From the IMG/VR virus record IMGVR_UViG_3300000292_000047: 48,335 bases of DNA; one strand, written 5' to 3'. The translations under genes and the position numbers were made by a program. The stretch comes from a virus. Taxonomy: Duplodnaviria; Heunggongvirae; Uroviricota; Caudoviricetes. A model generated the notes under the pieces. The model was given only the letters and a program-made list of their open reading frames with translations, had not been told where the DNA came from and did no database searches. Of this stretch, positions 17,802 to 42,531 are shown one piece after another (the first letter of the stretch is position 1; each line of letters begins with the position of its first letter).

Positions 17802-17810
17802 GCTCAATCC

Positions 17811-17856: not shown

Positions 17857-18045
17857 ATTTCAAGAAAAACGGGGCTATTTAACATAATGGACGTTATCGG
17901 CACCACCGGATCACCGTTCATTGTCGGATCTAAAAAATCCGCTCAAAAGATCATGTTTTCCTGGGCGTTTTCCACCGTTTTTTATGTTGCTTATTTGTTA
18001 ATGAAATCTCGTTTTCAGTTTCGCCTCATTTTCGACGCGAAAGCC

Positions 18046-18309: not shown

Positions 18310-18332
18310 AACAAACCTCATTTTTGCATGTT

Positions 18333-19260: not shown

Positions 19261-19263
19261 GGG

Positions 19264-21274: not shown

Positions 21275-21855
21275 CCCTGATTCATCAGCTCTGGCCATAC
21301 GATATCCGGAGCTGTACTGGTGTCAATTCTACTCACTAATACTCTGTATTTTCTCCAGGAATCCAGTTGTGAATTTTCCTCGTTTGTTGCTATTTCAAGA
21401 TTAACTGCATCCTGCAGAATTGCGATGTTATCTGTTGCTTCCTGGATCAACCTTGCCTTTTTCTCTTCCGCTTCCCGTATCCGAAACAGTTTTTCTGCTT
21501 CCTCATCATTCACCCAGGATACGCCGTCCCACTTCTGATACTCCCCTGCTGGCGACAACCAGGTGACATTCTCTGGTAGCGGTCCGAGTTCAGAAATAAA
21601 CAATGCGTCCCCCGACGCCACGTCATAGACCGTTTTACCACGATGGTCTTCAACAATATTCCACGATTCATTTTCACTGTTAAAAACTGCCACAAAGCCA
21701 GCAGGAATTTCCGGTGGGGCGATATCTGTAGAATTAGCTGGCAGCCCTGTATGAGGTGGAATATATGCGTCACCTTCACCAATAAACTCATTAGTTCCGG
21801 CCAGCAGGTTATAAATTTTTACGGTACGTGATTGTTCACTCATTCTGAATGCCAT
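21238..21855 (-). CDS. Tail fibre assembly protein (Tfa)
   Basis: 205 aa; [42 protein letters not shown] typical enterobacterial Tfa N-terminus. Confidence 0.8.
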
Positions 21856-24701
21856 TATGCAAGCCTCACAATATAATTAAATGCGATGTTTTTAACGGTG
21901 TTTTCCGCGTTACCAGCAGCGTTAACGGTGATGGTGTGTCCATGTGAACCAATCGCAACAGAGTGCGTATGAGCGCCAATACCAACAGTGTGTGCATGTG
22001 CCCCAGCACTTGTAGCGGTACCTGATACTGAGTGGGTATGTGCGCCAGAAGAAGGCACAGTTCCATTCCCCACCACCGTGCCACTTGATGAACCATCCAG
22101 CCAGTCGAAATTCATACCGCCACTGTTTGGTCTCCTTAATGGAACGGTATGAGTATGTGCGCCAGCACTATTTGCAGTACCAGATACATTATGGGTATGT
22201 GCACCTGTGTTATTCGTTGATTTAGTACCGTAATCAAACGACGATGTGGTTTTCGTACCCAAATCCGTATTGGATGCGCTGGCACTGTGGGTGTGCGATT
22301 TAATGCCATCCTGTTCCTGAGACAATACGGCCCGACCACTGGCGGGTTTGCCCTTGATTGTCCAGCCGCGCATATCTGGAATAACACCAGAAGGATAGGC
22401 AATAGCCAGTTTCGGATATGCTGCCTTATCAAACGTCTGCCCCTGCATGATTGCATAACCTGCAGGTGGCGTATCTGATGGCCACGGCAGCGGAACACCT
22501 GGCGGAAACGCTTCAATATTTGCCGAGCCGTCAAATTTTACGCCGTTAATTGTCCTTGCCGTTTTCAGCTTTGTTGCTGTAGCAGCATTGCCGGATAGTT
22601 CGCCTGAAAGACCACCGCTGAATGTCTGTTTCGCCATCCATGTCTGAGCTTCGTCGATAATTGGCACACGTCTTGTCGTGATCGTGCGGCTTCCCGGATT
22701 TCCTGAAATGCGAACCATAAAAAAGCGGTAGTTGGCTTTACTTACAGTGCTGCGCCATACATGCATTGAGCGTCCCGAACCAGAATCATCACTCGGACCG
22801 ACTGAGATGTTTATCAGGTTGCCATCAATGACGCCCCAGTCCATACCGTCGGGAATATTGGTCATGTTATCAAGCCGAACGGTTATCAGACTGCCCGGCA
22901 CAAAATCGTAGGTCTGCCAGTCCAGGCTGGTGAGCTTTGCCACAGCACCGCCGATACCCAGATTCAGGGGAAGTGAATACGAGGTGTAGACTTCCCGCCA
23001 TTCGCTCCATGAGCTGCCGGTAAAGACGCGCTCAAAGGTGCGGCCTTTAAGGGTTGTACCTGTTCCGGCAGTTGTATAACGCTGCCATACATTAACACCA
23101 TCAAACCGCCTCAACACTTCCAGAATGCCGAGTACAGTCACGCCGTTTCCGTCCAGTACTGGACCGTTGGTCGCTTTACCTGTAACGCTGTAAATACCTG
23201 GTGAGGTTACATCATTCAAATCACCTTCGTAATAACGACTCTCTGACTGATGACCGACTCTTAACCACGGTTCCCACTGCGGATTTGATGCATCCCAGCT
23301 TGCCGCAAGACAGCGGACATACATATTTCCACGGCGAGTGGTATAACGTTGCGTTCTTCCATAATTTCCGCCTTCGAGGATCTCAAGCATCCCCTGAGCA
23401 AAGCCGCCTTCCTCTGGATAATTGCGTTCATATGAAGCTATAGCTGAGCTACTGTTACGCCATAAACCAAGATGCTCGGCGGCTCCAAGCGTATTCAGGT
23501 CTATAGTCGTACTCAAAGGGCGGGTAGCAGATTGAGTGTGACGCCATACGCCCCACGGACCATCAGTGCCATTCCACTTATTGGCGAGTTTACGCATGTA
23601 TACATTGCCGTCTCTCGTGGTAAAGCGTTGCGTACCTGCAAAATTGCCGGCAGCAAAAACCTCAAGCACACCGACAGCATTATCTTCCGGGAAATTTTTC
23701 TCCAGTGTTGCGTTGGTGGATGTTGCTTTAGACCAGATACCTGAATAAGCCTTAACAGGACCAAACGTATTCAGATCAGCATCAAGCGGCATTTCGCCAT
23801 TGTTTTTCATAAACGTCAGGCTGGTAACGCCAACATTGTCCAGAAAAGCTGATTTATCCTGGATATCTGCACCGTTCTGATTTTTCGCCAGACGTGAATT
23901 TGCGTTGTCATTTGCTGCCTTGACCGCTTTTGGCGTTGCCGCCTGCGTTTCAGACGTACTGTTAGTGGCACTACTGAGCTGAACTATCCCTTTTTGTGCC
24001 GTGGTGGCATTCTGGGCGGTATATTTTCCGTCAGCCAGGTCATATGCAGCCTTAACAGCCTTAGGCGTCGCTGCGAGCTTTTCAGACGTGCTATTGGTGG
24101 CATTACTGAGTTGAACAATGCCTTTTGATGTTAAAGTTGCATCAGGATGATTACGTGATTGCTCATGTTTTACAATAGCTTGCTTAAGCCGCTTTGCTGA
24201 AACAGCCAGGGAATCATCTGTACCTGCATCAATTTCTTGTTCATTAGCAAATCTTGCTACTCCAACAACAGTTTCGGTTGCGGGAGGGTTAATAAACTCA
24301 ACATCACCAAATGTAATGTTTTTAGTATCAAGATTTTTAATTGCTATATCACTTGATATTAAAGCAATTGTAGAAGATGCTTTATTTATTATTACTTGTT
24401 CTTGCGAGTATACAGCAAACAATGTTCCTTTATTTGTATACAACCCTATTGTATGGACAACATACTCATCTTTACTATCATCCTTCGCAGTTACATGAAT
24501 GGTATCAGGAGAAACGACTTTGCCTCCTATTGTGGTAAGTCGCTTTATTTCATCTGTTATTTTTGTTTGTGTGGTTGATGTGGCATAATATCTACTACCT
24601 AAACCAACAGAAACGATCTCAACTTTATTTGTTCCAGTCTTGTTGGCATTAACCAGCGCCTTACGCCCGGCGTCAGTCATCGTAAATAATAATTTACTCA
24701 C
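21855..24701 (-). CDS. Tail fibre protein (P2 H-like N-terminal/central region, His-rich C-terminal repeats)
   Basis: 948 aa, GTG start with AAGGA SD; [28 protein letters not shown] repeats like P2 gpH; C-terminal GAHTH(S/N/T)V repeats. Confidence 0.85.
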
Positions 24702-24731
24702 GCTTAATTCCTTGGATTAACAAATCGCAAA

Positions 24732-25313
24732 TTAGCACTCACCAATTAATCGTACATAAGACACAGGCTGGAAAGCACCGACAATACCAACACCACCTGA
24801 AACATTGGTTGCTTGCGAAAATGTAAATAGTGTTCTTGCCGACTTTGCACTCTTGATACTTCTTAACGTATCCTCCAACATCTCTTTCGAAGGAACAGCA
24901 CCATCAAAAGAGTTAATCGAAGCAACAATTGAGGCTGTATATGGTTCGCCAGGTGGTGATGTTTCAAACCATTCTGTTATGTTTACCTCTCCACCCAAGC
25001 TATTTACTACATCTTCAACCGCTGCCCTTGTACCCTTTATTCGCTTTGTTCGTATTATTGATTTAAAAACAGAACGCTTTAACGATACAGGCCAACTATC
25101 CCTCCATGTATCAGCATTCCATTGCCAAGCTAAATGATCGAGAACAACTGAGTCCAGGTTATCAACAACGCTATATATTTCTGTCTTATATATTAAATTG
25201 TTAATTGCTTGTAGTTCATCATCAATAGCTTTCGACATAGCTATCACGTTGGGATCGCTAGCTAAGTTAGGAGGTAAAACATCCAACAAGCTAACATTAA
25301 AGATATCAGCCAT
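24732..25313 (-). CDS. Tail/baseplate protein, P2 gpI-like
   Basis: 193 aa, position between J-like gene and fibre; RTKRIKGTRAAVEDVV motif. Confidence 0.65.
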   Translation of the reverse strand: MADIFNVSLLDVLPPNLASDPNVIAMSKAIDDELQAINNLIYKTEIYSVVDNLDSVVLDHLAWQWNADTWRDSWPVSLKRSVFKSIIRTKRIKGTRAAVEDVVNSLGGEVNITEWFETSPPGEPYTASIVASINSFDGAVPSKEMLEDTLRSIKSAKSARTLFTFSQATNVSGGVGIVGAFQPVSYVRLIGEC

Positions 25314-26430
25314 CCTCTAACCCCGCATACTGGCAATTTATATTTCTCTCTCTGGCGACCTGTGTCTCTCCAACCACATTAAAAACAGGACTTGATATTT
25401 CTAATCTTTTAGCCCCAGCATTTTTTAAACGTTGAATAATTTCATCTGGATTTATATCTCTTCCCATAACCGAACGTTGCCATTGTTTATACTCATCAAT
25501 AGCTTTCTCAACCTCACTTTGAATTAAAGTTGTTCTGTTTTTGTCCGATGAGTTAATCCAGTATTTAATTATTATATCGTATTCAATGCTCTCTGGTTTC
25601 TTAACAAGAACTTTATCTGTGAATGGTCGAATATTAGTTGCAGAGAGAACGCTATTTATCTGCTCTAATAGTTCATCAGAAGGTATATCTCCGTTCTCTA
25701 ACAAAGAACGGATTTCTACAATTCCGGGCGATGGTGTATATACATTCACATCTTTTATATTCTGATTGGCTGTTCTTGTCCAATATTTATAAGAATCCTC
25801 CGGCCCTGCTGTAGACAGTTTTTCCGGCGACAGTTTTATTCTTTCAGCATAATTATCATCTGACTCCGTATCAGCACCAGAATTAGATGTTGTTACATTC
25901 CTTACGCTGGAAACATACGGCAACGGAGTCACCAACTCATTTATTTGCCCTGGTAAAAAGCCATTCCCAGATAAACCAGGTATAACAGCATATCCTGAGA
26001 CTGTACCAACTGTTTTCCCAGCAGGTATTTCCAACAAAATATCTGTTTGGAAAATAACACCATTTCCAGTTGAAACTTGAGTGCCAGCAGGTATTGTATA
26101 TATCCCCGATAATTTTGTTGACAGATTAAACTCAAATGTAGTCAAGGCAGATTGAGCTTCCAGCCTAGGCGTATCCGTCAGATAGCCTATATGGTCGAGA
26201 TATTCACCTTCACCATATGTAAGAAGGTTTTGTTTTGCAGAAAAATCGATAGCTTTTCTTTGCTGTATAATAATCTCACACAATGATAAGATGAATAATC
26301 TACGTGGATCAGCAGGTGCTAATGTTTCACCTGTTATACTCTCAAAAGCCCTGATTGAACGAGTTGTTATATCAGTCGGGTTAGAATCTGCGAAAGTAAT
26401 ATCTGGCAAACCACCACGCGGCAACGTCAT
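25306..26430 (-). CDS. Baseplate J-like protein
   Basis: 374 aa; size, order W-J-I-H. Confidence 0.7.
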   Translation of the reverse strand: MTLPRGGLPDITFADSNPTDITTRSIRAFESITGETLAPADPRRLFILSLCEIIIQQRKAIDFSAKQNLLTYGEGEYLDHIGYLTDTPRLEAQSALTTFEFNLSTKLSGIYTIPAGTQVSTGNGVIFQTDILLEIPAGKTVGTVSGYAVIPGLSGNGFLPGQINELVTPLPYVSSVRNVTTSNSGADTESDDNYAERIKLSPEKLSTAGPEDSYKYWTRTANQNIKDVNVYTPSPGIVEIRSLLENGDIPSDELLEQINSVLSATNIRPFTDKVLVKKPESIEYDIIIKYWINSSDKNRTTLIQSEVEKAIDEYKQWQRSVMGRDINPDEIIQRLKNAGAKRLEISSPVFNVVGETQVARERNINCQYAGLEDG

Positions 26431-26747
26431 TCTCTAACTCCTATCACAAGTTTTGGCCTAATAAAACCATCAGAAACGTCCGTTCTTTCAAAAGTAACAG
26501 AATGGATAATCGCTCTAGGCTCAAACTCACTAATTTTTTGAATTATTTCTCGTGTTGCTGTAGCAATAAAAATTGGACTAGGGCTATCAACAAGACTTGA
26601 ATTAATTCCTAATTTTCTGGCATATGGTACAGTGCCAATTTGAGTATTAATAATAGTAGAGACATTTTGCAAAACTTCTTCTACAACTGTTTTGGGCGAC
26701 CAATCAATCGAGTAAGAAGGTGATGATATGGTAAACGTATTATTCAT
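26427..26747 (-). CDS. Baseplate assembly protein W (gp25-like)
   Basis: 106 aa; position upstream of J. Confidence 0.65.
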   Translation of the reverse strand: MNNTFTISSPSYSIDWSPKTVVEEVLQNVSTIINTQIGTVPYARKLGINSSLVDSPSPIFIATATREIIQKISEFEPRAIIHSVTFERTDVSDGFIRPKLVIGVRE

Positions 26748-27211
26748 AATAATTTACCTAACGCACTTCTAGTTTTTGACTCTATATTGCCAGCAATATC
26801 AACTAATGCTTCTTTCAGAGAGGTCTGTCCGACTTCCTGTAATTTAATGCCGACGATAATCACTCGTGGATTCCCAGTTGGACCGAAATAAGTCCATGAT
26901 TCCTCTATATCTGTAATTATAAAATTACCAAAATACTGAATACCAATTACAACAGGATTTACTTCCTGAATTGATTGCATTGTCCTAAGTAATGAAAGCG
27001 CAGCCAATGGAACAATGCCAAGTGTTGTATCCAACCGCATATTAAAACTAACTTCATCCAGATCTGGACCTATATCCTCCAGAACAGGTTTAAGCCCAAT
27101 AACATCATGGCGCGCTACACGACGCTTTGACGTCCTTTTAAAATTGTTGAACGTATTCACCACTATTGATGAGGCAACAAAAGGCATTGTACCAAGCATA
27201 CCCACAATCAT
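26744..27211 (-). CDS. Putative baseplate/tail protein
   Basis: 155 aa between V-like and W-like genes. Confidence 0.4.
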   Translation of the reverse strand: MIVGMLGTMPFVASSIVVNTFNNFKRTSKRRVARHDVIGLKPVLEDIGPDLDEVSFNMRLDTTLGIVPLAALSLLRTMQSIQEVNPVVIGIQYFGNFIITDIEESWTYFGPTGNPRVIIVGIKLQEVGQTSLKEALVDIAGNIESKTRSALGKLL

Positions 27212-27828
27212 GCCTGAGCCTCCGTTGTCGGAGCGTATTCCCCCTGAGCTGTGTGATGGTGGCCTTTAGATTTAATCCCATCAACATCTATATCACCACC
27301 AACAACCTTAACATTCCCAGAAATTGTAGCTGCAACACCTCCAGCAGAAGATCCTTTCATTCCACCTTTGAAGGTTAGTAATCCTTCAACTGTAGCATTT
27401 CCGGTAATGATGGTTTCTGGAGCATCAATAGTTACGGTTCCTGTAGCCTTAATGGTTACATCTCCGACAGCATCAACAAGGAGTAAATTAGATTCTCTGT
27501 CTATCTCAATACGAGTTCCGTTATTAAATCTAATGACGCGTTTATTAACAGTATTAGATGGCGGCTTCTGTGTTTCATCATAAAAACTACCAAGAATAAA
27601 ACCTTGTTGCGGCCCCGCGGGATGAAAGATACACAAAACTTGCTCACCAATATCTGGCATCCAGTAATCAGCATTCTTATCTGTATTTTTCACAATAACT
27701 GATAACTTTGCCGAAGTGACGTTATCCTGATCATCGAAAGTAACTCTTGCTGTAACATCACCATCATCAATATCAGAAACAACGCCAACTCTTATAGTCT
27801 GACGTAATAATGTTTCTAAATCATTCAT
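27208..27828 (-). CDS. Baseplate spike/assembly protein V-like
   Basis: 206 aa; N-terminal OB-like region, C-terminal Gly/Val-rich beta-helix-like repeats. Confidence 0.65.
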   Translation of the reverse strand: MNDLETLLRQTIRVGVVSDIDDGDVTARVTFDDQDNVTSAKLSVIVKNTDKNADYWMPDIGEQVLCIFHPAGPQQGFILGSFYDETQKPPSNTVNKRVIRFNNGTRIEIDRESNLLLVDAVGDVTIKATGTVTIDAPETIITGNATVEGLLTFKGGMKGSSAGGVAATISGNVKVVGGDIDVDGIKSKGHHHTAQGEYAPTTEAQA

Positions 27829-27830
27829 AA

Positions 27831-28832
27831 TTAATACCCATTAATTACTCTTCGGACATCAATCGAGGTGGTATAACCACTAGTCCCAATTGAATGCACA
27901 GCTTTCGATATAAGATATTTTCCAGAAAATGAACCGAATCCCTCCAGATTTATAGTTACACCAGCTACCAATCTGGTGTCTCCAACCAATACTAAAGATC
28001 CGGTATTTTGATATCTATTTTTAAGCCGCAAAGCAGCCTTTGCCTTACGTTTTGCTTCATCTAAATTAGCTACCAGTTTTCTTATCTTAAGATTCGACCC
28101 TTCTTCTACGGATGGATCTACCCAAGTATACGAAAGCGACTTTCTTTTTTTAGGTACGCGATATTTGCACGTGCAACTTTTATACAAATCTGTAGATTGT
28201 GTGCTAAAGCTATATCTGATTATCTCATCAATACCTAACGTAAGCGTAGCGATAGGATCTTTTTGCTCAAACATCTCTTGAGCAAATATTATTAATTGGC
28301 TATCAGTGACCTTTAACGACAACCCTTCATCCTGGCAAAGTCGATGGAGAAATTTTAAATCGCTTTCCTCCATTTGATCTTCACGCGCATAATATGGATT
28401 ACTATCACCATCAATAAGAAACAACAGTTCAAGGTTAGCTAATTTAGCTATAGAAGTTGCTATATCTTTAAGAGTTGTTTTTTCCCATGCATTACTTTTT
28501 AAATCACGTCTAATGCCTGATGAAACAGGAACAGAAACAGCAGTTACCTCAACCACAGAAGGTGGTCCAGAGCAAGTTATGCCATCTACCTGGAATTTCC
28601 CGCACTCAAGGACGATTTGATTTATAGGCTTAAAGCTCAAATCAATAAAATCACCCTTTTTAGGTGTCCAGTCTCCAGACCATTTCCCATCATCATTTTT
28701 TAATATAATAGAAATATCATCGACCTGACCATCTTCATTATCTGTATAAGACATTGACAAAACATCAGGTGACATATGAGCGGTAATATTTACATTCTGA
28801 TATATAACATCAAAAAGCGTTTTACGTAACAC
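27831..28832 (-). CDS. Late control D-like tail/baseplate hub protein
   Basis: 333 aa following tape measure and X-like gene. Confidence 0.6.
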   Translation of the reverse strand: MLRKTLFDVIYQNVNITAHMSPDVLSMSYTDNEDGQVDDISIILKNDDGKWSGDWTPKKGDFIDLSFKPINQIVLECGKFQVDGITCSGPPSVVEVTAVSVPVSSGIRRDLKSNAWEKTTLKDIATSIAKLANLELLFLIDGDSNPYYAREDQMEESDLKFLHRLCQDEGLSLKVTDSQLIIFAQEMFEQKDPIATLTLGIDEIIRYSFSTQSTDLYKSCTCKYRVPKKRKSLSYTWVDPSVEEGSNLKIRKLVANLDEAKRKAKAALRLKNRYQNTGSLVLVGDTRLVAGVTINLEGFGSFSGKYLISKAVHSIGTSGYTTSIDVRRVINGY

Positions 28833-29040
28833 TATTGCGTCTCCACGGAGGAAAATTGTTTACTGATATTGGCATAACCGGAGCATCAGGAACTTTAAGA
28901 ATAATTCCCGCAGAAAAAAGCACCGTAAAGCGGTGCTCAGTATTAGCATCAATAAGAAGATAAGACAGGTACTCATTACCATACAACTTTAAAGCGATAC
29001 TATCCCATGAGTCCCCTTGAACCGTTCTATAATCATCCAA
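28822..29040 (-). CDS. Tail protein X-like (LysM-like)
   Basis: 72 aa; DSWDSIALKLYGNEYLSYLLIDAN LysM-like. Confidence 0.55.
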   Translation of the reverse strand: MDDYRTVQGDSWDSIALKLYGNEYLSYLLIDANTEHRFTVLFSAGIILKVPDAPVMPISVNNFPPWRRNSVT

Positions 29041-31825: not shown

Positions 31826-31830
31826 TAGTA

Positions 31831-32261: not shown

Positions 32262-32270
32262 TTTGTCACC

Positions 32271-32792: not shown

Positions 32793-32808
32793 AGCAACCT
32801 CCTATTAT

Positions 32809-34272
32809 TTATTCAGAAAACAAGTTCAGCAGATAATCAGGATTATATTCCATGACGAACTCTATATCTCTGGCAGGTGAGAATGGTGTCATTTTCACAT
32901 GGAATTTAACAATCCCGTCCATCAATGACGTAATCGTGTTTTCAGACTGATCAAAGGTAACAACACCACCTGCAATATCCTGATTACCAGTGAGGCCGTT
33001 AAGCCAAATATTCGCACTAGTAACAATCGATTCAATTAATCGACGGTTTGCAGGATTGTCTATTTTTGACCAATGCGAAAGAATTAACGTATTACCCACC
33101 CAGTTAAACATACGTCGGCAAACACGAAATGCGTCTTTGGGGTCTGTAGATGTTGGATAAATAGCATTACGGTTTCCCCATGATTTCCAACCATCAAAAT
33201 TAAGGCTTGTTACAATCCCCTGTCCATTTAAGTAGTTTGCCTGGCTAATGTTAAGCCATACCTCACTGCCATCTTTACGTACAGCACCGTCCATCTGTAG
33301 TTTTATATTTGACGGAGAACGTGATGGAATATCACCATACTGACTATCCAGCAAGCATGTTGCTGCCGCTAAATGGGTTGAGTGATGGTAAATATTGTCA
33401 CCAAGTTTCACCATCGGCCAGCACACTGTCTGGTTAGCTGCCATATGATTATTGTTCTGCTTCCATTCAGGAACAGCAGAATAATCACTGATAGTAGATT
33501 TATCAGTCGGCGCATCGGTGATAGCTTCTGCTTTGAACAATTCACTAATCAGCGCAGCTTTAGCCGCCATTAGCTGGCCAACTTCACTATCAGAACTAAA
33601 TCCAGGCGCAATCACTTGTCCTGGAACTAGTTTGAAGCGGGGATAAACATCCGACAGTAACTCAAGCCCCGTATTCGCTTTAGTGTTGGAATCCACACCA
33701 CCAATAATATCGTTTTTAGTTACAGCCCCGGGATCAAGATGCGTATAACTAACCTTAAGAGTGGCGTCTTTTTCAGTAATTTTTCCTCCGCTAATAGCGG
33801 TAATGACCGTATAGCCATTATCATCCAGCGCCAGTACATAATCTGTATCAACCGTTAACCCTGGAGAATCACCATCTGCTTTTTTCACAACAACAGATTT
33901 ATATAAGACACCATCGTTAGAGAGCGTACCTTTCCCGCCAGAAAGTTTTACTACCTCATCAGTTACGTCTTTCTTATGCTTTGCTGGATCAAGCACATTG
34001 ATAAATACAACTGGCGCAACACCATATATTCCAAATGCGACTTTAATTACTTCGCTTAAAGTATATTTCTCGAAGTTTGTGCTATATCCTATTTTAGATA
34101 CGGCCTCTGCGTATGTATAAGCAATGATAGGTTTATTTACCGCTGAGGCTGGATCTTCTAACTGATTAACAGGAGTTGTACCAAATGCGACAATCAACCC
34201 AGCACTAACTTGTACTGGAGGAGTTATAGATGTAGCCAGCTCAGATATATAAATACCGTGGCGATATCCCAT
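32809..34272 (-). CDS. Contractile tail sheath protein (FI-like)
   Basis: 487 aa; position and size. Confidence 0.8.
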   Translation of the reverse strand: MGYRHGIYISELATSITPPVQVSAGLIVAFGTTPVNQLEDPASAVNKPIIAYTYAEAVSKIGYSTNFEKYTLSEVIKVAFGIYGVAPVVFINVLDPAKHKKDVTDEVVKLSGGKGTLSNDGVLYKSVVVKKADGDSPGLTVDTDYVLALDDNGYTVITAISGGKITEKDATLKVSYTHLDPGAVTKNDIIGGVDSNTKANTGLELLSDVYPRFKLVPGQVIAPGFSSDSEVGQLMAAKAALISELFKAEAITDAPTDKSTISDYSAVPEWKQNNNHMAANQTVCWPMVKLGDNIYHHSTHLAAATCLLDSQYGDIPSRSPSNIKLQMDGAVRKDGSEVWLNISQANYLNGQGIVTSLNFDGWKSWGNRNAIYPTSTDPKDAFRVCRRMFNWVGNTLILSHWSKIDNPANRRLIESIVTSANIWLNGLTGNQDIAGGVVTFDQSENTITSLMDGIVKFHVKMTPFSPARDIEFVMEYNPDYLLNLFSE

Positions 34273-34562
34273 TATTTAATCTCCATGATAGAAGAAGAAA
34301 CTCTAGAGTACATTACATACTCGACACTGGTTTTATCAGAAAGTCTTTTTTCTGCATCTGAAAAATCACTGGTTGCCACAAACAAACACTTTGCACCAGG
34401 AATATGTGATATTAATTTTTCACACTCTGGAGATAAGCCATTCTTAAATAGTTTATGCTTCAAAATTGAGAGTTGAGGGATTGTTGGCCCTATATATACA
34501 AATGTTTGAGCAACATCTTCCTTCTTTTCTATATCTTCTTTACTACTTTTCTTATTAGCCAT
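34272..34562 (-). CDS. Hypothetical structural-module protein
   Basis: 96 aa between neck genes and sheath. Confidence 0.4.
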   Translation of the reverse strand: MANKKSSKEDIEKKEDVAQTFVYIGPTIPQLSILKHKLFKNGLSPECEKLISHIPGAKCLFVATSDFSDAEKRLSDKTSVEYVMYSRVSSSIMEIK

Positions 34563-35048
34563 TTAGATAAACTCCTGAGACTGAATATTCTGAGGCTTTA
34601 ATACTAGCCACGTTCCAGTTGCTTCCGTTATCCAATATGGATATGGTTGATCATCAAACATTCGCCATCTGATATCACCCTGAAAGAGAAATTTCTCTTC
34701 AAGTAAAGGCTTCTCCTGAAAATGAAACATCATCCTTTCAAGAAGAGCCATTACCCATTCATATCCAGTATGGTCCTCACAAAAACCACCTAGAAGAAAC
34801 TTAACCTTAACTTCATCCGTTTCAGGCTGCATTCCTCCTTCCGTGGGCCTGATAATCACATGAGGAAATTCTGGCGGTTTATCTGGAGATGGTTGTGATT
34901 TAGGAGGCAAGTACCCTTTAAATATTGTTGGAACAAACAATTTAATATCGCTGTCTGTTTCATCATAAGGAGGCCCCTGCACTAATAAATCATGGAAAAC
35001 CTCATGTTCCAACCGATTTTTTATTGCATCTATCAAAAGATTAATCAA
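34563..35048 (-). CDS. Putative tail completion/neck protein
   Basis: 161 aa; position. Confidence 0.4.
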   Translation of the reverse strand: MINLLIDAIKNRLEHEVFHDLLVQGPPYDETDSDIKLFVPTIFKGYLPPKSQPSPDKPPEFPHVIIRPTEGGMQPETDEVKVKFLLGGFCEDHTGYEWVMALLERMMFHFQEKPLLEEKFLFQGDIRWRMFDDQPYPYWITEATGTWLVLKPQNIQSQEFI

Positions 35049-35389
35049 ATCGGCATTCCTCTGTTAGTATTAACAGTGAGAGTTATTTCCAATACACCAA
35101 CATTATCTGATACTTCATCAACAATATAATTTTTACCGTTGATTTTCATTGACTGGTCTTTGACAGGGAGAACAGGAAAATCTTTTCTTGAAACAAATAA
35201 TATTATTTGCCCCTGATTTATTCCCTCTGCAAACTCAGCATATGAGCGTTTATTCCGCTCATGAATAAGGTCTGTATCAATAACGGCAAGGATATCCTTG
35301 CCGTCTATGTTATATGTATCGGCAAACTCTTTTTCATTGAGGAATATTGCAGAAATATCTTGCGCTATAACCTCTTTGAAGGAGTTCAT
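35045..35389 (-). CDS. Putative head-tail connector/head completion protein
   Basis: 114 aa; position after capsid genes. Confidence 0.4.
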   Translation of the reverse strand: MNSFKEVIAQDISAIFLNEKEFADTYNIDGKDILAVIDTDLIHERNKRSYAEFAEGINQGQIILFVSRKDFPVLPVKDQSMKINGKNYIVDEVSDNVGVLEITLTVNTNRGMPI

Positions 35390-35781
35390 TACTTCTTATT
35401 ACCTTTTTTTTGCGTTGATTTTTTCGCATTACTGGTATCAGAAGTAGCTACAGATTCAGATGAATCATCAGCAACCATTTCCTCATTGCCGCCATCATCC
35501 TCAAACTCAACCTCGAATACACAGCTACCCGCCTCCGTTCGCGTAATCAACCCCGCGTCCACAGCATCATTAACAGCAGATGCGTATCCATGCTCAAAAG
35601 CTAACTTAGCAGCATCATAGCCCCCAGCCGATGCCAAATCACCATCCTCTTCGGTGGCAATAGCATGTCCTGACGCAATCAGTTCGGCAATTCTGGAGTT
35701 ATCCATTAGCCCATTAAGCAAACGGCCCGCTTTTAGCGAGCCGTGGCTTATCGTATCAATGTTTTTAATCAGTCTGGCCAT
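35389..35781 (-). CDS. Hypothetical head-module protein with acidic C-terminus
   Basis: 130 aa immediately after major capsid gene. Confidence 0.4.
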   Translation of the reverse strand: MARLIKNIDTISHGSLKAGRLLNGLMDNSRIAELIASGHAIATEEDGDLASAGGYDAAKLAFEHGYASAVNDAVDAGLITRTEAGSCVFEVEFEDDGGNEEMVADDSSESVATSDTSNAKKSTQKKGNKK

Positions 35782-36825
35782 TTAAACCACCTTAGCCACC
35801 AGATAGGCATCAGCCACACCAGGATTAGGCAGTGGAGATGACTTCATGGCAACATAACGGCCAGCCGGCTTACGAGTTACCCAAGTGTCTGGAACTCGTG
35901 GTGACTCAACAATCGTTAGAGTCTTTTCGGCGTCATCTACAAGCTCTACAGCACCATACAGCATCGTTCCTCGACCAGGAGAGCCAAAGAGGATCTTATC
36001 TTCCGGTACTAATGGTTCAGGTTTTCCTGTTTTATCATTGCGAATAAGTTCGTCGTAACCATAAAAATCGACACCTTCAAGATTGCCATAATGAGTTACG
36101 CCTTCTTCTAACTCTTTAGGCTCAATATACCCAAGCTCTTTTCGGCGATTATCAAGATATTTAGTTACTGCTTCATTTTTAACGAAGGCATCAACAACTT
36201 TTGCGCCCATTACGGCAACACGAGGTGTAAAACCTGAAGTTAGTGATACCCGACGTTTCCAGTTGCGAACATTGACTAACGGATCTGATTTTGCTGCACT
36301 CCATAAATCATCACCTGTCAGTTCAAGATATGGTTTATCTCCTTCCTCTTCAGGCCAAAAATAAACTGTGTCATCCACTCCTTCACCAACAATATCAACC
36401 TGCCCCGTAAACAAGACTTGTGCACACATCCATTCTTCACGGCGGTTAACCATTTCATCAAGCTCAAGCAAATCTTTACCTAATTGCTCGGCGGCTCGTT
36501 CTGCTGGCGATTTTGCGTTGTAAATATTCTCACCCGGAAGCCTGTTTAAAAGCAGCTCGGCTGTTGTTACCAAATCAGGTGCAACAAGTGGTGGCTCCAG
36601 AGTTCTCGTTACAAAGCCGCGTCGCTCAACGGTTTTTGAGCCAAAACCTTTACCAACAAACGGAGCCATAGTACGGCCACCGCGAACAAAATCCAGATCA
36701 ACTTTCTTTGTATTAAAGGTCTGAACACCAGGAAAAAAGGTACGAAGAAGAAAACGACGAGCCTTGAAATTCTGAATAACAGGCTCAAGCATCGTACGTC
36801 GTTCAAAAATATCAATATTCGGCAT
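35782..36825 (-). CDS. Major capsid protein (lambda gpE-like)
   Basis: 347 aa; position after protease and decoration genes. Confidence 0.8.
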   Translation of the reverse strand: MPNIDIFERRTMLEPVIQNFKARRFLLRTFFPGVQTFNTKKVDLDFVRGGRTMAPFVGKGFGSKTVERRGFVTRTLEPPLVAPDLVTTAELLLNRLPGENIYNAKSPAERAAEQLGKDLLELDEMVNRREEWMCAQVLFTGQVDIVGEGVDDTVYFWPEEEGDKPYLELTGDDLWSAAKSDPLVNVRNWKRRVSLTSGFTPRVAVMGAKVVDAFVKNEAVTKYLDNRRKELGYIEPKELEEGVTHYGNLEGVDFYGYDELIRNDKTGKPEPLVPEDKILFGSPGRGTMLYGAVELVDDAEKTLTIVESPRVPDTWVTRKPAGRYVAMKSSPLPNPGVADAYLVAKVV

Positions 36826-36845
36826 AAAAATACGACCTCTTTATA

Positions 36846-37229
36846 TTATGCAGATGGATTTTGTTGTGCGGTATTAAGGAATATTCCAACCTTCCGGCAA
36901 GCCAGATATACATCGGCAACTTTTGCTGATTCAGGAAGGATAACCGCATGTGCATTGAACATTCCGGTCAGCCATGCTGTTCCGACTTGCGCTGAATCAG
37001 TCGCATCAATATTGTGTTGAGCGATACAATACGGTTCTTTTGCCTCCCCTTCACCAGAGAGATTTATTGGCGCCACAGTGACAACATTTGTTGTCTGATC
37101 AATACTGACAAAAGCAAGTAACTCACCCCGTTTTACTTTACCGCTGGCAAGTTTAATACTTGTCGGAATTGCTGGCATACCACCAGAAATAATCAGATTA
37201 TCTGGTTCAAATGAAAAAGACTCTCGCAT
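36846..37229 (-). CDS. Head decoration-like protein
   Basis: 127 aa between protease/scaffold and major capsid. Confidence 0.45.
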   Translation of the reverse strand: MRESFSFEPDNLIISGGMPAIPTSIKLASGKVKRGELLAFVSIDQTTNVVTVAPINLSGEGEAKEPYCIAQHNIDATDSAQVGTAWLTGMFNAHAVILPESAKVADVYLACRKVGIFLNTAQQNPSA

Positions 37230-37238
37230 AAACTCACC

Positions 37239-38327
37239 TTAATTTTTATCGCGGTTTTTAAATACTGACCCAATAACATTTTTTACTGCTTCAGCCTGTT
37301 TGTTGCCGTTGTTTTCTGGTTGATTAACATCAACTGAATCATTCACCTCACTTGCGTCTTCTTGCCGTTGATTAAGAAAGTTTTTGTTACGCGCTCGCTC
37401 TGCATTCATAATTTCCAAAGCAAGTTCAGCCGCAGAAACTCCTGTTTTGAATTTTGCATTCTTAACCAGGTCGTCATGACCAGGAATCACGCTATTCTCG
37501 ATTGTTTCAATGCGCTCGCGTTCTGATTTAACGCCCTCGTCTTTACCAGCATTAAAAACCTGATTGTATAATTCTGGATATTTATTTTTTAATTCATCAA
37601 GAGTCACAATATCGTCCTCATTTTGTTCATTTGATTCAGTAGATAACTCATTTTTATTTTGCGGCAACTTTGCGAGTGAATCAGGTAATTTTGAAAACCT
37701 TGATGCTTCAAAAGTTATTCCATTAAGCGAAAGCATCCCTTCCTTTATAGAAGCGGATAAGCGTATTGGTTTTTCAACTTCGTCAGCAAATCCAAGCTCT
37801 ACAGCCTCTTCTGCATTTAGCCATGTTTCCTGATCCATTAGTTCAATTAATTTATCCTCAGAAAGCCCTGTTTTCTCCTTATATGCAGATAAAATACTAT
37901 TGCGTATCTTATCCATCATCTCAGCAATATCACGCAATTCATCCGCATCGCCAGCAGCAAATATCCACGGATTATGGATCATCATCATAGCATTAGATGG
38001 GATAATAATTTTATCACCCGCCATTGCAATAATAGTTGCAGCCGATGCAGCAATCCCGTCGATATAAACCGTAATATTCGCCTTATGACGCTTTAATGAT
38101 GAAAGAATAGCTTGAGCAGTAAAAACAGAACCACCATAACTATTAATTTTTACGTTGATAGTATTTGATGAAATATCCTTTAATTTATTAACTATGTCAG
38201 AAGAAGAAACCTCATCAAATTCACCAATATACCCGTAAATTAAAAGTTCAGCCGGAGAGTCATCTTCACCCGTGCTATTTTTTATTTCCCACCAATTAGG
38301 CATCATCAGTCTCCATATTTTGTTCAT
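37239..38327 (-). CDS. Head maturation protease (ClpP/S49 fold) with C-terminal scaffold-like domain
   Basis: SYGGSVFTAQAILSSL..GIAASAATIIAMAGDKIIIPSNAMMMIHNP; acidic coiled-coil C-terminus. Confidence 0.8.
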   Translation of the reverse strand: MNKIWRLMMPNWWEIKNSTGEDDSPAELLIYGYIGEFDEVSSSDIVNKLKDISSNTINVKINSYGGSVFTAQAILSSLKRHKANITVYIDGIAASAATIIAMAGDKIIIPSNAMMMIHNPWIFAAGDADELRDIAEMMDKIRNSILSAYKEKTGLSEDKLIELMDQETWLNAEEAVELGFADEVEKPIRLSASIKEGMLSLNGITFEASRFSKLPDSLAKLPQNKNELSTESNEQNEDDIVTLDELKNKYPELYNQVFNAGKDEGVKSERERIETIENSVIPGHDDLVKNAKFKTGVSAAELALEIMNAERARNKNFLNQRQEDASEVNDSVDVNQPENNGNKQAEAVKNVIGSVFKNRDKN

Positions 38328-39870
38328 TTACCTCAGAAACAGGAGGTGTAATAAGCCCCAACTCACGGCGAGCATTCTCTTCTCTGCCACAGATTTGTGC
38401 GGTTTCTTCCCAGTTAAGACCTGACATTTCAGCCGCTTCTTTTTCACGGGTAGAGAATGTTTCCTCAACACGCAGTTTTGCAGCTTTGACTTCTTTAAGG
38501 GGATCTAATTGGCCTTGTGATGGGCCATACCATTGAGCGCCACTCCATGCAGCGCGATATTCAGGCCCATAAAAAAAACCAGGGGCAATAACACGACCTT
38601 TAGCAACGGCTTCGGCCAACCATTCCTCATAGATCGGTTGGCAAAATGACTGAACCATCCAGTCACGTCGCATACGGAACATTTTCCAGGCTTCAAGTAA
38701 TGCGGCCCTGCTTGCGCTATAACTTGCTGTAAAATGCTTTACCAAGAGTTCGTAAGGGAGTTCTAAAGCAGCCCCAATTTGACGGCATATGGCGACAACA
38801 AAACCATCAAATGCCGTATTTGGTCGCCCGGGATTTGCTGTATCTATCGACTCACCTTCACCCAAACTTACTATGGAGCCATTCCCCATTTCTTGGGTGT
38901 TATTATCATGGTTATCGATCTGCTCGTACTGAGGGATACCCGATTCACCGACTGGCCCATCAGGAGCGTCTGTTTTAATAAAGACAGTAAACATCCCTGA
39001 CACAACCGCAGCAACCAATTCAGCATCGGTGTATCGTCCTAACTGCTTCAATGCTTCAATTACAGGAGCAAGGACAGGAACGCCACGGCGTTGCCCAGGC
39101 CTTTCAAAATCCTGCATGACATGCAGAATATTTCTTCTTCCTGTTTTACTCCCATATGCGGGAATACGTTCCCACTTGCGGGTTACAAAACCAGAAGTCC
39201 CGGCTGGGTGATGTTTTGCAACCCAGTACGCCACAGGCTCGCTAAATTCACCAACCTCTACGCCACCGTAAAGATTTGGTATAAAACGATCCTCTGGATT
39301 GCAAACACGATCACCTTCAATTAAATAGACGCACAAATCATATATAACACCCTTACGCTTAATAACTGGTAGCGCAGCAAATATATCGCCAGATGTTAAC
39401 GCAGATATTTGGACCAATGATTGCAATTGTCCAAAAGTACACATTCTTGATGCATCACAATTTGGAGAATCAGCCCATAATCTAAACTCACGCTCAACAT
39501 GCTTTTCCCATGCTCGCGCTTCTTCCTGCGTCATCCCCAAGAAATCGGCATCAATGTTCGCATTTAGTTTTAAACCGGAACCAACAACGTTTGTCCTGAT
39601 AGTTTTTATTGCGCCAACAGATAGCGGGTTTCCCATGAAGAGATCACGAGAACGCTCACGCAATTTATCTATATTTTTAACAATATCATCATCAGGAGAA
39701 CCAGCTTTACTAAACCAACCCCTTAATGATTTTTTATGAGTGCTTGCACCATGACGTGAATATCCAAGGTTATTAATACCTTCAAGTGCTTCTAACCGTT
39801 TTCTTGCCAAAGCTCGATTTAATGCCCTCTGAGGTGAAAACGGCGCAATAACTCGATCAAGAATATTCAT
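38296..39870 (-). CDS. Portal protein
   Basis: 524 aa between gpW-like gene and protease. Confidence 0.8.
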   Translation of the reverse strand: MNILDRVIAPFSPQRALNRALARKRLEALEGINNLGYSRHGASTHKKSLRGWFSKAGSPDDDIVKNIDKLRERSRDLFMGNPLSVGAIKTIRTNVVGSGLKLNANIDADFLGMTQEEARAWEKHVEREFRLWADSPNCDASRMCTFGQLQSLVQISALTSGDIFAALPVIKRKGVIYDLCVYLIEGDRVCNPEDRFIPNLYGGVEVGEFSEPVAYWVAKHHPAGTSGFVTRKWERIPAYGSKTGRRNILHVMQDFERPGQRRGVPVLAPVIEALKQLGRYTDAELVAAVVSGMFTVFIKTDAPDGPVGESGIPQYEQIDNHDNNTQEMGNGSIVSLGEGESIDTANPGRPNTAFDGFVVAICRQIGAALELPYELLVKHFTASYSASRAALLEAWKMFRMRRDWMVQSFCQPIYEEWLAEAVAKGRVIAPGFFYGPEYRAAWSGAQWYGPSQGQLDPLKEVKAAKLRVEETFSTREKEAAEMSGLNWEETAQICGREENARRELGLITPPVSEVNEQNMETDDA

Positions 39871-40106
39871 AAATCTCTTATCACCACTCGTTTAATTCGT
39901 GGGCCTCGGCGTACACCTGCTGATAATCTTTCTACTTCATTACGCCAGTAATCCATCTCTTTTCTGACTTCTGATAAATCCGCACGAGTTAACTGCCGCG
40001 TACCAAATTTATATGACTGACCGCCAATAGCAATAGCGCGATATGCTTCCCGCCAGACAGATAACATCTCTCTGGCTTCAGTCAGAGAAAATGCTTCATT
40101 GTTCAT
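39867..40106 (-). CDS. Head-tail joining protein (lambda gpW-like)
   Basis: 79 aa between terminase large subunit and portal. Confidence 0.55.
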   Translation of the reverse strand: MNNEAFSLTEAREMLSVWREAYRAIAIGGQSYKFGTRQLTRADLSEVRKEMDYWRNEVERLSAGVRRGPRIKRVVIRDL

Positions 40107-40117
40107 TTATATTTCCT

Positions 40118-41974
40118 CTATATGGTTACGCCTTTACTTATAACTCTACGGCGTCTTCTACGTATACCTGACGAGTTCTGCACATACACATTACCTCGCA
40201 TTTCCTGTTCGGCAAGCCAGTTAAAATTAGGGTTCAGAATTTCCATCGCGGCAGTTGCATAGTTACGGCAATCAAGAGGCTCGTTACGCTCGTAGACTTT
40301 CACCCACTTTTCTTTTGTCTGCCCATTTTTATATTCAAATATTTTTTTCTCTGATAATAATCCTTTAAAGTATTCGGTATCATATCCTCTGTCAGAATCT
40401 AATGGGAAATGCATATAACCAGGACCAGGATCATGTAGTTTAATTCTTGCCATGATGGTCCCTTTACCATCATCAACCCCCAAATTAAACAACATAGCAC
40501 CCACACGGTTATTATTACTTGGCTTTCCTATAAATGGTAAACCTACCCCACCACGCCCCCTGATAGAGTATATTCGCCTTGATTCTCTCGGCTTAGTAAA
40601 GCGATATACCTCTGTCGTAAAATGCCCACCAGAGTCAATACAAACGGAAGAAATCTGTAATTTTCGACCGTCACGGAATGACCAGCTACGGAGTAAGTAT
40701 TCATCAAGTTGTTTCCAGACAACATCTTGTGCGGGATCACCTGGGAATATTTTATATTCTATCCCCCATGACTCCTTACCTTTTCCCCAACCGACCAATT
40801 CACAAACTAAATACGTGTCCTGTACGTCAACACCAGCACTTAACAATAAAACATCATCTGGTAAAAACTCTTCAAACCTTATTCTGCGTTGCAACAAGTA
40901 TTCAGGATCGATATCGTCTTTAGCATCCTCTTTCCATGGCTCACCCAGCTTAAGGTTAATAAACTCCATTAATCCATTTTTATCGCGGTTTCTGGTTGCT
41001 TCCGTAAATTCTTCAACCAGCTCTGACAATGCAACCCACGGGGAGTAAAGACTGTTAATATGAAAACCAACAATACCTTTAACTCCAGTATGTTCAGCTA
41101 TCCATACCCCCTTCGCCAACCAATCAACGTCTGGTTTACCAGATCCGCGCATAATCCCGCCGCACTCACAGCACTCATATCTGGCCGTTTCCGGTAACGC
41201 CTCACCTGAATCGCTCTTATCCCATCTGACTTGCGACCATTTCATCACCTGCATGGTGCCACAACATGGGCAAGGAACATGGTAGTAACGCTGATCGGAG
41301 AGCTTAAACCACTTGTGGATTTTGCTTGTTTCCTCCAAAACAGGAGTAGAAACAAAAACTTTCTTACGATTATGAAAGTTGGTAGTACGCTGAATACCTA
41401 GTTTTAGTGGGTCGCCCTCCTGCGTCACACCGTAACGATCAATCTCATCAGCTAACAGTATTCGAATTGGCCTGGATGCAAGACCTGCTGGGGAATTAGC
41501 ACCAACAAGTGCTATATATCCACCAGCGTAATGCTTCATACGTATAGTCGTGCTGGACTTTTTGGCTGCACCGCGCCCCTCTTTCCCTTCATGCAGCTTG
41601 TGTTTCAAACCAGGGGAATATTTGAACGTCGGATCAATACGCTCTTTTGAAAAAGCCTCAGCCGCCTCTACCGTTGGATAAATCATCAACTGAGGAGATG
41701 GCTCCTGATCTGCAAAGTAACCCATAACATTTAGCTGTAATTCGGATTTACCAATTTGCGAGCTACATTGCATCACTACTGTTTCTGTATCAGCGTCACC
41801 AATAACATCCATTGGTTCACGCAAATATGGCACTCGGCTTGTACGCCACGGCCCTGGCTCTGGAGACGTTCCCGGCGCTACATGACGATACTTATCAGCC
41901 CATTCGGAAACAGTTAGCCGTGATTTAGGGCGAAGCGCACGGAAAAAAGCGGTGCTCCATACTGTTTCGCCCAT
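40118..41974 (-). CDS. Terminase large subunit
   Basis: 618 aa; ATPase N-terminal region and nuclease C-terminal region; position. Confidence 0.85.
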   Translation of the reverse strand: MGETVWSTAFFRALRPKSRLTVSEWADKYRHVAPGTSPEPGPWRTSRVPYLREPMDVIGDADTETVVMQCSSQIGKSELQLNVMGYFADQEPSPQLMIYPTVEAAEAFSKERIDPTFKYSPGLKHKLHEGKEGRGAAKKSSTTIRMKHYAGGYIALVGANSPAGLASRPIRILLADEIDRYGVTQEGDPLKLGIQRTTNFHNRKKVFVSTPVLEETSKIHKWFKLSDQRYYHVPCPCCGTMQVMKWSQVRWDKSDSGEALPETARYECCECGGIMRGSGKPDVDWLAKGVWIAEHTGVKGIVGFHINSLYSPWVALSELVEEFTEATRNRDKNGLMEFINLKLGEPWKEDAKDDIDPEYLLQRRIRFEEFLPDDVLLLSAGVDVQDTYLVCELVGWGKGKESWGIEYKIFPGDPAQDVVWKQLDEYLLRSWSFRDGRKLQISSVCIDSGGHFTTEVYRFTKPRESRRIYSIRGRGGVGLPFIGKPSNNNRVGAMLFNLGVDDGKGTIMARIKLHDPGPGYMHFPLDSDRGYDTEYFKGLLSEKKIFEYKNGQTKEKWVKVYERNEPLDCRNYATAAMEILNPNFNWLAEQEMRGNVYVQNSSGIRRRRRRVISKGVTI

Positions 41975-41979
41975 GAGGT

Positions 41980-42531
41980 TTATTCTTCCTGCTTAATAAA
42001 TCGGGATTCCTGGAGCGCCTGAAGCGCAAAATTAATCTCGTCTTCAATAATGCGCTCGATCTCCCTGGCTGTTTTGCCTTCACAACGGGGAGCTGCTCTT
42101 GGAGCAATACTAAATAAGCGGCTACGCAATTCATTAGCTGCCAGAAATGCATCATCCCTGACCGCATCTTTAGCGATGAGAGAGCCTTCCTTTTCTTCAA
42201 ATTCAAGGCGTTTCAGCTTTGCCTGATAAATTTTTTCTGCGGTCTTAGCCTTGTTGAATTGCACCGCAACACCGGAAGTACCACCAGCTAATCCGGCATC
42301 ATCAGCGGGTAACTCTGGTTGTTCCGAAGATATCCCATGCCCTCTTTTTCCATTTTCAGCAGATACCTCACGACCAACCTGTCGGCTCGCTTCATAAGCC
42401 GCACTGGCTTTATCAAAATCCAGCTTGCCGCTTTTCAGCACTGGAATGCGACCGGAACGACAGAGCTTCGTAACCATTGCCGGAGAAATACCTTTCCGGC
42501 GGGCAAACTCTGACTTACTGACGATGGCCAT
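41980..42531 (-). CDS. Terminase small subunit (HTH)
   Basis: Track start TTG; ATG at 42529-42531; N-terminal HTH SKSEFARRKGISPAMVTKL. Confidence 0.55.
   Translation of the reverse strand: MAIVSKSEFARRKGISPAMVTKLCRSGRIPVLKSGKLDFDKASAAYEASRQVGREVSAENGKRGHGISSEQPELPADDAGLAGGTSGVAVQFNKAKTAEKIYQAKLKRLEFEEKEGSLIAKDAVRDDAFLAANELRSRLFSIAPRAAPRCEGKTAREIERIIEDEINFALQALQESRFIKQEE

Follow-up and report, generated by a model that had tools for sequence, protein, structure and literature searches.

The window analysed here, the whole 48,335-nucleotide (nt) stretch recorded as IMG/VR virus IMGVR_UViG_3300000292_000047, carries a long run of phage virion genes in which head proteins akin to those of phage lambda are followed by tail proteins akin to those of phage P2. 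We conclude, with a probability of about 0.87, that this region is a single tightly packed late operon of a temperate, contractile-tailed phage that is kept as a circular plasmid of ~48.3 kb in Escherichia coli, and that the pairing of a lambda-family head with a P2-family tail is the standing architecture of a large and old lineage, passed down vertically as one unit along with the plasmid backbone. To that lineage belong the Vibrio X29/XM1 group, Lilyvirus, gut phages like Lagaffevirus, and numerous prophages. A preliminary description of this DNA had called the region a hybrid of a lambda-like head and a P2/Mu-like contractile tail, which is right as a description of protein families but is unsupported as a recombination event here. 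The phrase "lambda-like head with P2-like tail" is an artefact of naming proteins after model phages and not evidence of recombination at this locus; the architecture is already documented in deposited and published phages and is nothing new as a finding.

Gene families were assigned with Pfam and PHROGs, with further checks by PDB sequence search and hhalign. All of the virion genes lie on the minus strand, running from position 43121 down to 21238, and the largest intergenic gap in this 21.3-kb operon is 30 nt. Family assignments were given to 25 genes:

42531-43121, minus strand, ParB-like nuclease, directly upstream of TerS (ParB_N 3.8e-8, phrog_620 5e-75)
41980-42531, minus strand, small terminase subunit, TerS (phrog_57 1.4e-41)
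40118-41974, minus strand, large terminase, TerL, lambda gpA family (GpA_ATPase, PF05876, 7e-76; GpA_nuclease, PF20454, 1e-84)
39867-40106, minus strand, gpW-like head-tail adaptor (DUF6148 7e-16, phrog_118 7e-29)
38296-39870, minus strand, portal, lambda gpB family (Phage_portal_2, PF05136, 7e-101; PDB lambda portal B 8k38, 3e-41)
37239-38303, minus strand, ClpP-type head maturation protease (CLP_protease 1e-31 over residues 33-177; phrog_94 3e-81)
36846-37229, minus strand, probable head decoration protein (phrog_49 3.6e-25)
35782-36825, minus strand, major capsid protein, lambda E family (Phage_cap_E, PF03864, 1.5e-55; PDB lambda gpE 7vi9, 6e-17)
35389-35781, minus strand, connector c1, in the lambda FI position (PHROG match)
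35045-35389, minus strand, connector c2, head closure, FII-like by PHROG (PHROG match)
34563-35048, minus strand, connector c3, virion structural (PHROG match)
34272-34562, minus strand, connector c4 (PHROG match)
32809-34272, minus strand, tail sheath (phrog_23 4e-95; hhalign to P2 FI, 98.6%)
32271-32792, minus strand, tail tube (Phage_tube, PF04985, 3.5e-44; PDB pyocin tube, 1.6e-8)
31980-32261 with a -1 frame extension at 31831-32013, minus strand, chaperone pair beginning with an E-like open reading frame (Phage_TAC_7 1.5e-5, phrog_3140, phrog_30074)
29033-31825, minus strand, tape measure protein, TMP (PhageMin_Tail 1e-20, phrog_28 9e-109)
28822-29040, minus strand, X (Phage_tail_X, below cut-off, backed by PHROG or position)
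27831-28832, minus strand, D (Phage_GPD)
27208-27828, minus strand, V spike (Phage_base_V and Phage_spike)
26744-27211, minus strand, U, between V and W (Phage_P2_GpU 2e-22)
26427-26747, minus strand, W/gp25 (GPW_gp25, below cut-off, backed by PHROG or position)
25306-26430, minus strand, J (Baseplate_J 4e-54)
24732-25313, minus strand, I (Tail_P2_I 4e-27)
21855-24701, minus strand, mosaic tail fibre H (family-specific N terminus, P2-like part, and lambda Stf-like end)
21238-21855, minus strand, lambda Tfa-like tail fibre assembly protein (Caudo_TAP 1e-39)

By these matches the head and packaging proteins are assigned to the lambda A/B/E families and the tail proteins to the P2/R-pyocin families, the latter in a Mu-like single-block order. 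The lambda order TerS-TerL-gpW-portal-protease-decoration-capsid given in the preliminary description was confirmed by Pfam and PHROGs against the lambda record. Its tail inventory was incomplete: sheath, tube, chaperone, TMP, X, D, V, W, J, I, H, and Tfa were all found, but gpU and the four connector genes had been missed, and Tfa, although a real gene, falls outside the interval 21855-42531 in which it had been placed.

When the capsid and sheath proteins were compared by tblastn with 50,697 phage records, the same phages led both lists in nearly the same order. Below the near-identical E. coli and Yersinia phages at the top of both, identities to the capsid and sheath, respectively, were 46.6% and 53.4% for Vibrio X29, phi 2, and Rostov 7; 45% and 50% for Vibrio parahaemolyticus R19R and XM1; 41% and 41% for Saumur; 40% and 43% for Lily; 36% and 44% for Exiguobacterium EalM-137; 35% and 44% for phiERICV; 35.5% and 46% for HFM1; 29% and 33% for Fusobacterium phages; and 27% and 28% for Lagaffe. 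Synteny with X29, R19R, Lily, KLER1-1, and HFM1 was gene for gene, and with Saumur and Lagaffe it was largely kept. Head and tail identities matched at four depths, namely, 98 to 100% nt for E. coli and Yersinia elements, 78 to 90% amino acid (aa) for Salmonella, 40 to 66% aa for X29-like phages, and ~35 to 55% aa for phages of Firmicutes. The Salmonella plasmids LN890526 and CP053324 had identities of 88/86% for TerL, 86/84% for portal, and 84/84% for capsid on the head side and of 84/85% for sheath, 90/90% for tube, and 85/87% for D on the tail side, where sheath, tube, D, V, U, J, and I together spanned 78 to 90%. For X29 and R19R, TerL, portal, and capsid were at 45 to 66% and the core tail genes were at ~35 to 57% (I and TMP lower). 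Nucleotide identity was flat across the head-tail junction, at 98 to 100% with YpM_39 and the ATCC 25922 plasmid and ~74% with Salmonella.

Neighbor-joining trees with bootstrap were built for the head (TerL, portal, and capsid) and for the tail (sheath, tube, D, and J). Both trees grouped the window with Salmonella and X29 with R19R at 100% bootstrap, and all nodes with at least 97% bootstrap that involved the window were common to the two trees, with no supported conflict there. The preliminary description had itself proposed separate capsid and sheath phylogenies as a check on its hybrid, with uniform composition and congruent phylogenies to count against it, and the phylogenies were congruent. 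In a genome scan with one genome per bacterial species, we found 80 loci with a capsid homologue, 65 of which had at least 5 kb of downstream sequence, and a cognate sheath and tube lay downstream of the capsid in 60 of those 65 (at 1.6 to 2.2 kb, with one locus at 3.2 kb). These 60 head-plus-tail loci come from Bacillota, Bacteroidota, Fusobacteriota, and Armatimonadota. Divergence from the Salmonella sister was equal for backbone and virion genes (80.5% versus 79.0% aa); head, tail, and backbone have been inherited together.

The element as a whole is a complete circular phage-plasmid, and GenBank already holds it under plasmid records as well as phage records. The last 54 nt of the window (48282-48335) repeat the first 54 nt (1-54), so the window is the whole circular replicon with an assembly overlap; its unique length of ~48,281 nt agrees with a 48,282-bp E. 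coli record that is 100% identical across the examined region. Circular plasmids such as pECO-b75 (NZ_CP009861) are 99.8 to 99.9% identical to the window. Phage deposits of this DNA also exist, namely, Escherichia phages vB_EcoM-613R2 and 473R2 at 99.8% identity and Yersinia phages vB_YpM_39, 41, and 44 at 98.3%. Three of the near-identical phage deposits name Yersinia pestis EV76 as the host, and depositors gave near-identical isolates names of the form vB_..M_ (myovirus). The backbone includes a RepA of the IncFII family (PF02387/IncFII_repA, 1.3e-43) and, as in near-identical circular plasmid records, ParA, a RelE/HigB-type toxin pair, holins, and an endolysin, and genes for lysis, immunity, and replication are all found on the element. 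A circular extrachromosomal replicon thus carries plasmid replication and partition genes beside all the genes of a phage, which, with the deposition of the same DNA as phages, identifies the element as a phage-plasmid. Of 5,426 complete E. coli genomes, 57 carry at least 80% of the region, and all 62 matching records in PLSDB are plasmids, all typed as nonmobilizable, including the 48.5-kb plasmid of ATCC 25922 (NZ_CP009073). This strain, a laboratory standard, thus carries a phage-plasmid of this kind, which is probably inducible. The Salmonella sister plasmids LN890526 and CP053324 (~74% nt and 79% aa identity) have the same backbone.

The real recent mosaic is within the fibre gene H, with recent exchange confined to the distal fibre genes, a familiar fibre-tip exchange. 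Approximately the first 296 aa of H are common with YpM_39 (85%), and approximately the first 175 aa also are common with the Salmonella plasmids (69%). Homology to YpM_39, the ATCC 25922 plasmid, and the Salmonella plasmids ends inside H near 23.9 kb, and the GC content (GC) climbs from 39% to 50% at about 23980-24100, also inside the gene. Beyond this point, window positions 22546-23982 are 93.7% identical at the nt level to the H genes of several P2-like phages, H residues 721 to 948 are 66% identical to lambda Stf, and Tfa matches lambda tfa at 81% in aa and 82.6% in nt. The window's own distal fibre end consists of the lambda-like Stf/Tfa and an acyltransferase gene, whereas the ATCC 25922 plasmid, YpM_39, and a Salmonella Weltevreden plasmid have there a DNA invertase/recombinase gene and two opposed Tfa genes. 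Correcting the hybrid reading thus shows where recombination really acts, which is the fibre tip. The acyltransferase gene, of the hexapeptide-repeat type (20711-21274, plus strand), is convergent with Tfa, the 3' end of which it overlaps; it takes the place of the DNA invertase and alternative fibre-assembly genes of the sister elements and is possibly a lysogenic-conversion gene.

A recent origin of the whole region, by recombination of a lambda-like head with a P2/Mu-like tail in this element or its near ancestors, with the AT-richer tail marking another donor, is very improbable. The preliminary description had found the tail visibly more AT-rich, and its tail block (24300-35400) does have 39.3% GC versus 43.6% in the head block (35400-42531), with a per-gene difference at P = 0.006; on average the head exceeds the tail by 3.5 GC points, and strict uniformity of composition does not hold. 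Rare codons, AUA and AGR, also are commoner in the tail than in the head, with AUA frequencies per 1,000 codons of 10.8 in the backbone, 14.7 in the head, 29.7 in the connector, and 24.9 in the tail. However, the difference is small: GC at third codon positions (GC3) was 30.7% in the tail versus 33.7% in the head, which was not significant per gene (Mann-Whitney P = 0.13), and the ranges overlap, the protease gene of the head being at 36.8% GC and the TMP and sheath genes of the tail at 41 to 42%. An equally large block difference was obtained in 37% of equivalent sliding placements along the window. Nor is there a compositional step at the junction, since the strong boundaries from entropy segmentation were two, one within H at 24101 and one at 43506, upstream of the ParB-like gene, which enclose head and tail together at 40.8% GC versus 46.7 to 48.7% outside, and the best splits within the virion module fell away from the head-tail joint (34.3 to 35.8 kb), at 29927 or 38354. 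Given these boundaries and the overlap, composition sets head and tail jointly apart from the remainder of the plasmid more than it separates one from the other. An equal head-tail offset (+2.8 to +3.0 points) is seen in the Salmonella sister plasmids and therefore arose before they parted from the E. coli lineage. The flat identity profiles at every depth, the congruent trees, the occurrence of the combination in distant phyla, and genes that abut without a seam all speak against a recent joining as well.

An ancient fusion is a different matter, and we give slightly less than even odds to a lineage that arose long ago from E-family head and P2-family tail blocks that are still exchanged at times, a reading that is compatible with vertical inheritance of a standing architecture. 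E-family capsids (25 to 29% identity) occur in the noncontractile Chi-like, Xylella Sano/Salvo, and BcepNazgul phages, full-length sheath homologues (27 to 30%) occur in transposable phages of the BcepMu/phiE255 type that are absent from the capsid match list, and 5 of the 65 capsid loci had no sheath. In the Pararheinheimera phage KLER1-1, the head (700-8600 of its record) is 29 to 36% and the tail (10400-19500) 46 to 54% identical to the window. This near tail with a far head is likely a head-module replacement within the lineage, and head-tail swaps therefore do occur in it. The differing deep distributions of the modules, together with KLER1-1, make ancient or occasional exchange in the lineage likely, but the direction and number of such events are not readable from these data, the distributions could also stem from replacement in other lineages, and nothing ties any such event to this window. 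Along with KLER1-1 and the GC and codon offsets, several observations weigh against the preferred reading: X29 is closer to the window in the head (distance 0.55) than in the tail (0.81), the tail tree places the Vibrio group with poorer resolution, and connectors c1 to c4 could be tied to no known family and showed no similarity to lambda FI/FII/Z/U, P2 L/R/S, or Mu gp35 to gp38 by hhalign and had no significant PDB sequence match. The virion, cos end, and frameshift product of this exact sequence are predicted from its genes, which would also suit a defective remnant or tailocin-like cluster, a cryptic relic that has lost the ability to make infectious phage, as would the lack of the gpZ-like neck gene that X29, Lily, and HFM1 have. 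We consider such a relic highly unlikely, given that all open reading frames are intact, that lysis, immunity, and replication genes are present, and that elements 98 to 99.8% identical have been deposited as phage genomes, three of them with the Y. pestis EV76 host.

Under the preferred reading, in which head and tail form one inherited operon, the gene families and relatives suggest how the virion would be made. A terminase of the Nu1/gpA type would cut a cos site upstream, expected near 43.1 to 43.6 kb, and package the DNA through the lambda-family portal into a prohead of E-family capsid protein, which would be matured by the ClpP-type protease, with the C-terminal half of the latter as the putative scaffold, and stabilized by the gpD-like decoration protein. 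The gpW-like and FII-like proteins would close the head. The tail would be built on a P2-type baseplate of X, D, V, U, W, J, and I; the tape measure would set its length, aided by chaperones from -1 frameshifting at T_TTT_TTG, a tube and contractile sheath of the P2/R-pyocin type would form it, and the mosaic fibre H and assembly protein Tfa would set host range. In the HFM1 record annotation and in Lagaffe (PMC5883640), the cos ends adjoin the terminase genes. Promoter and terminator scans of 24000-43800 gave no enrichment over shuffles, with no intergenic terminator between head and tail.

The head proteins differed in the strength of their matches to lambda. TerL was 28% identical to lambda A and 63% identical to X29, and the capsid aligned with lambda E by hhalign (99.6%, E = 9e-24) with no match to P2 N or Mu T. 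TerS matched lambda Nu1 over the N-terminal 30 residues only (hhalign, E = 8e-4), and the adaptor in the gpW position matched lambda W with a probability of 70.5% (E = 3.9e-5). The protease scored 110.6 bits for ClpP/S14 and 24.4 bits for S49, which is under the cut-off of 24.9; the position and length of its C-terminal half (about residues 180 to 354) suggest the scaffold. For the decoration protein, the Pfam HDPD score of 19.5 bits was under the cut-off of 29.1, the hhalign match to lambda D was weak (E = 0.034), and the PDB sequence search gave no significant match. The ParB-like gene upstream of TerS is kept at the same position in X29 and R19R (59 to 62% aa) and in the Salmonella plasmids (79% aa) and probably belongs to the packaging block.

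Between capsid and sheath sit the four abutting connector/neck genes c1 to c4 (34272-35781, minus strand), and all genes from capsid to sheath abut or overlap. The connector PHROGs are phrog_5541, phrog_2551/phrog_82, phrog_2581, and phrog_4089, and conservation extends to c2 to c4 in X29 and R19R, c2 and c3 in Lily and HFM1, and c3 and c4 in KLER1-1. A gpZ-like "Neck1/tail completion" gene has no counterpart in the window or the Salmonella plasmids; it sits between c2 and c3 in X29, R19R, Lily, KLER1-1, HFM1, and Saumur (window 34563-35389 versus 9168-9734 of record L003). The sheath had no Pfam match and nothing by hhalign against Mu L, and over residues 186 to 482 it matched the R2 pyocin sheath in the PDB (3j9q, 5e-15).

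The frameshifted chaperone of the preliminary description held up, and the chaperones are predicted to be made by a -1 frameshift at T_TTT_TTG. This slippery heptamer, at 31995-31989, lies three codons ahead of the stop of the E frame, which reads CAG AAT TTT TTG CTC TCG TAG, and a -1 slip at the heptamer opens the reading frame that ends at 31831. TTTTTTG is also found near the chaperone 3' end in X29, R19R, Lily, KLER1-1, HFM1, Saumur, the Salmonella plasmid, and P2, and the P2 record annotates a -1 frameshift a few bases from it.

Of the known systems, the Vibrio phages X29, phi 2, Rostov 7, XM1, and R19R have, gene for gene, the module seen here, starting with the ParB-like nuclease and TerS and running to the fibre and Tfa. 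They share with the window gpU between V and W as well as the TTTTTTG site, and they are the best nonenterobacterial matches for the head and for most tail genes. Unlike the window, these phages have linear genomes with integrases and O/DnaC-type replication genes and are not plasmids, and they carry the gpZ-like neck gene, small reverse-strand inserts after TerL, and unrelated fibres. The group has been proposed as "Weiviridae," and electron microscopy of its member XM1 shows a contractile tail (PMC11432961). The same colinear head-plus-tail arrangement is found in Lilyvirus and in gut and Firmicutes myoviruses (Lily, phiERICV, Saumur, Epona, Toutatis, and Lagaffe; capsid, 27 to 41%; sheath, 28 to 44%), an architecture classed by Virfam as "Myoviridae type 1 cluster 6" (PMC5883640). 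Unlike the window, phages of the Lily/Lagaffe type have hosts in other phyla and are, instead of plasmids, integrated prophages with integrases or diversity-generating retroelements.

Lambda has the same order, Nu1-A-W-B-C-D-E, with TerL, portal, and capsid of the same families and a gpW likeness by profile. However, identity is low for TerL (28%) and portal (27%), the capsid likeness is not detectable by BLAST, and the lambda protease is the S49 gpC whereas that of the window is of the ClpP type. None of the lambda tail genes Z, U, V, G, T, H, M, L, K, I, and J was found in the window, where only the Stf end and Tfa match; the tail, with its sheath and tube, is not of the noncontractile lambdoid kind. 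Homologues of FI, FII, E/E', T, U, D, X, V, W, J, I, H, and G of the P2/R-type pyocin tail are all present, at 26 to 31% identity to P2 and often as partial matches only, and the sheath has ~185 extra N-terminal residues relative to P2/R-pyocin. The window has one tail block, FI-FII-E-T-X-D-V-U-W-J-I-H-G, while P2 has three operons (V-W-J-I-H-G, FI-FII-E-T-U-D, and X in the O operon). There was no similarity to the P2 head proteins N, M, and L, and the head is thus not of the Peduoviridae type. The tail matches the Mu order gp39 to gp50, except that it has X where Mu has gp43 and has gpU in addition, but beyond the fibre and Tfa the only match to Mu tail proteins was a partial one for J (29% over 40%).

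Ten curated phage-plasmid types, including P1, N15, the SSU5 supergroup (with pSLy3), AB, and cp32, are named in PMC7969092 and 10.1101/2025.08.29.673033, and this architecture is described for none of the ten. The tested accessions of the element were not found in the supplements on phage-plasmid types, and the literature that names its accessions (on enterotoxigenic E. coli reference genomes, S. Weltevreden, and prophages of carbapenemase E. coli) only lists the element without further description. Tentatively, the whole element could be an uncharacterized enterobacterial phage-plasmid type that combines an X29-like virion module with an IncFII-family RepA/ParA and a P1-like C4-RNA/antirepressor immunity, present in ~1% of complete E. 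coli genomes (including ATCC 25922) and with sisters in Salmonella; in the E. coli lineage, its late genes have shifted to AT-rich, AUA/AGR-rich codons, perhaps in dependence on an AUA-reading tRNA-Ile of its own. Two leads were rejected: pSLy3 was wrong as a lead for the type, being an SSU5 supergroup member, and the "plasmid-like" Yersinia phage HQ103 is a P2-like phage unrelated to the element. Rfam matches in the window were ryfA (12652-12948, minus strand), isrK (13320-13392, plus strand), and a C4 antisense RNA (13417-13505, plus strand). The last lies directly upstream of an ORF6N/antirepressor-like gene (13747-14898), an arrangement that suggests P1/P7-style antisense-RNA control of the antirepressor.

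The GC3 of virion genes (24100-43500) was 0.324 in the E. coli lineage versus 0.454 in Salmonella LN890526, and that of backbone genes was 0.482 versus 0.513, respectively. Replacement of the whole virion module relative to the Salmonella sister was ruled out as a cause of this strong AT shift, because backbone and virion genes are equally diverged. A tRNA gene with anticodon CAU (1009-1084, minus strand), called Met by ARAGORN and annotated in RefSeq as Ile (ileX-like, AUA-reading), is present in the E. coli-lineage elements and absent from X29 and from the Salmonella sisters, whose virion genes are not AT shifted; the shift of the late genes toward AT and AUA may depend on this tRNA-Ile. Relatives that are otherwise 98 to 100% identical to the window dip to 90 to 97% at 33501-34000, 37001-38500, and 29501-30000, in the sheath, protease/decoration, and tape measure genes, respectively, which suggests small gene-conversion tracts among family members. 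Besides the gene next to TerS (42531-43121), two further minus-strand genes with a ParB N-terminal domain are found at 44415-45794 and 45788-46411; the three may act in packaging, partition, or DNA modification, and one of them is fused to a methyltransferase domain.

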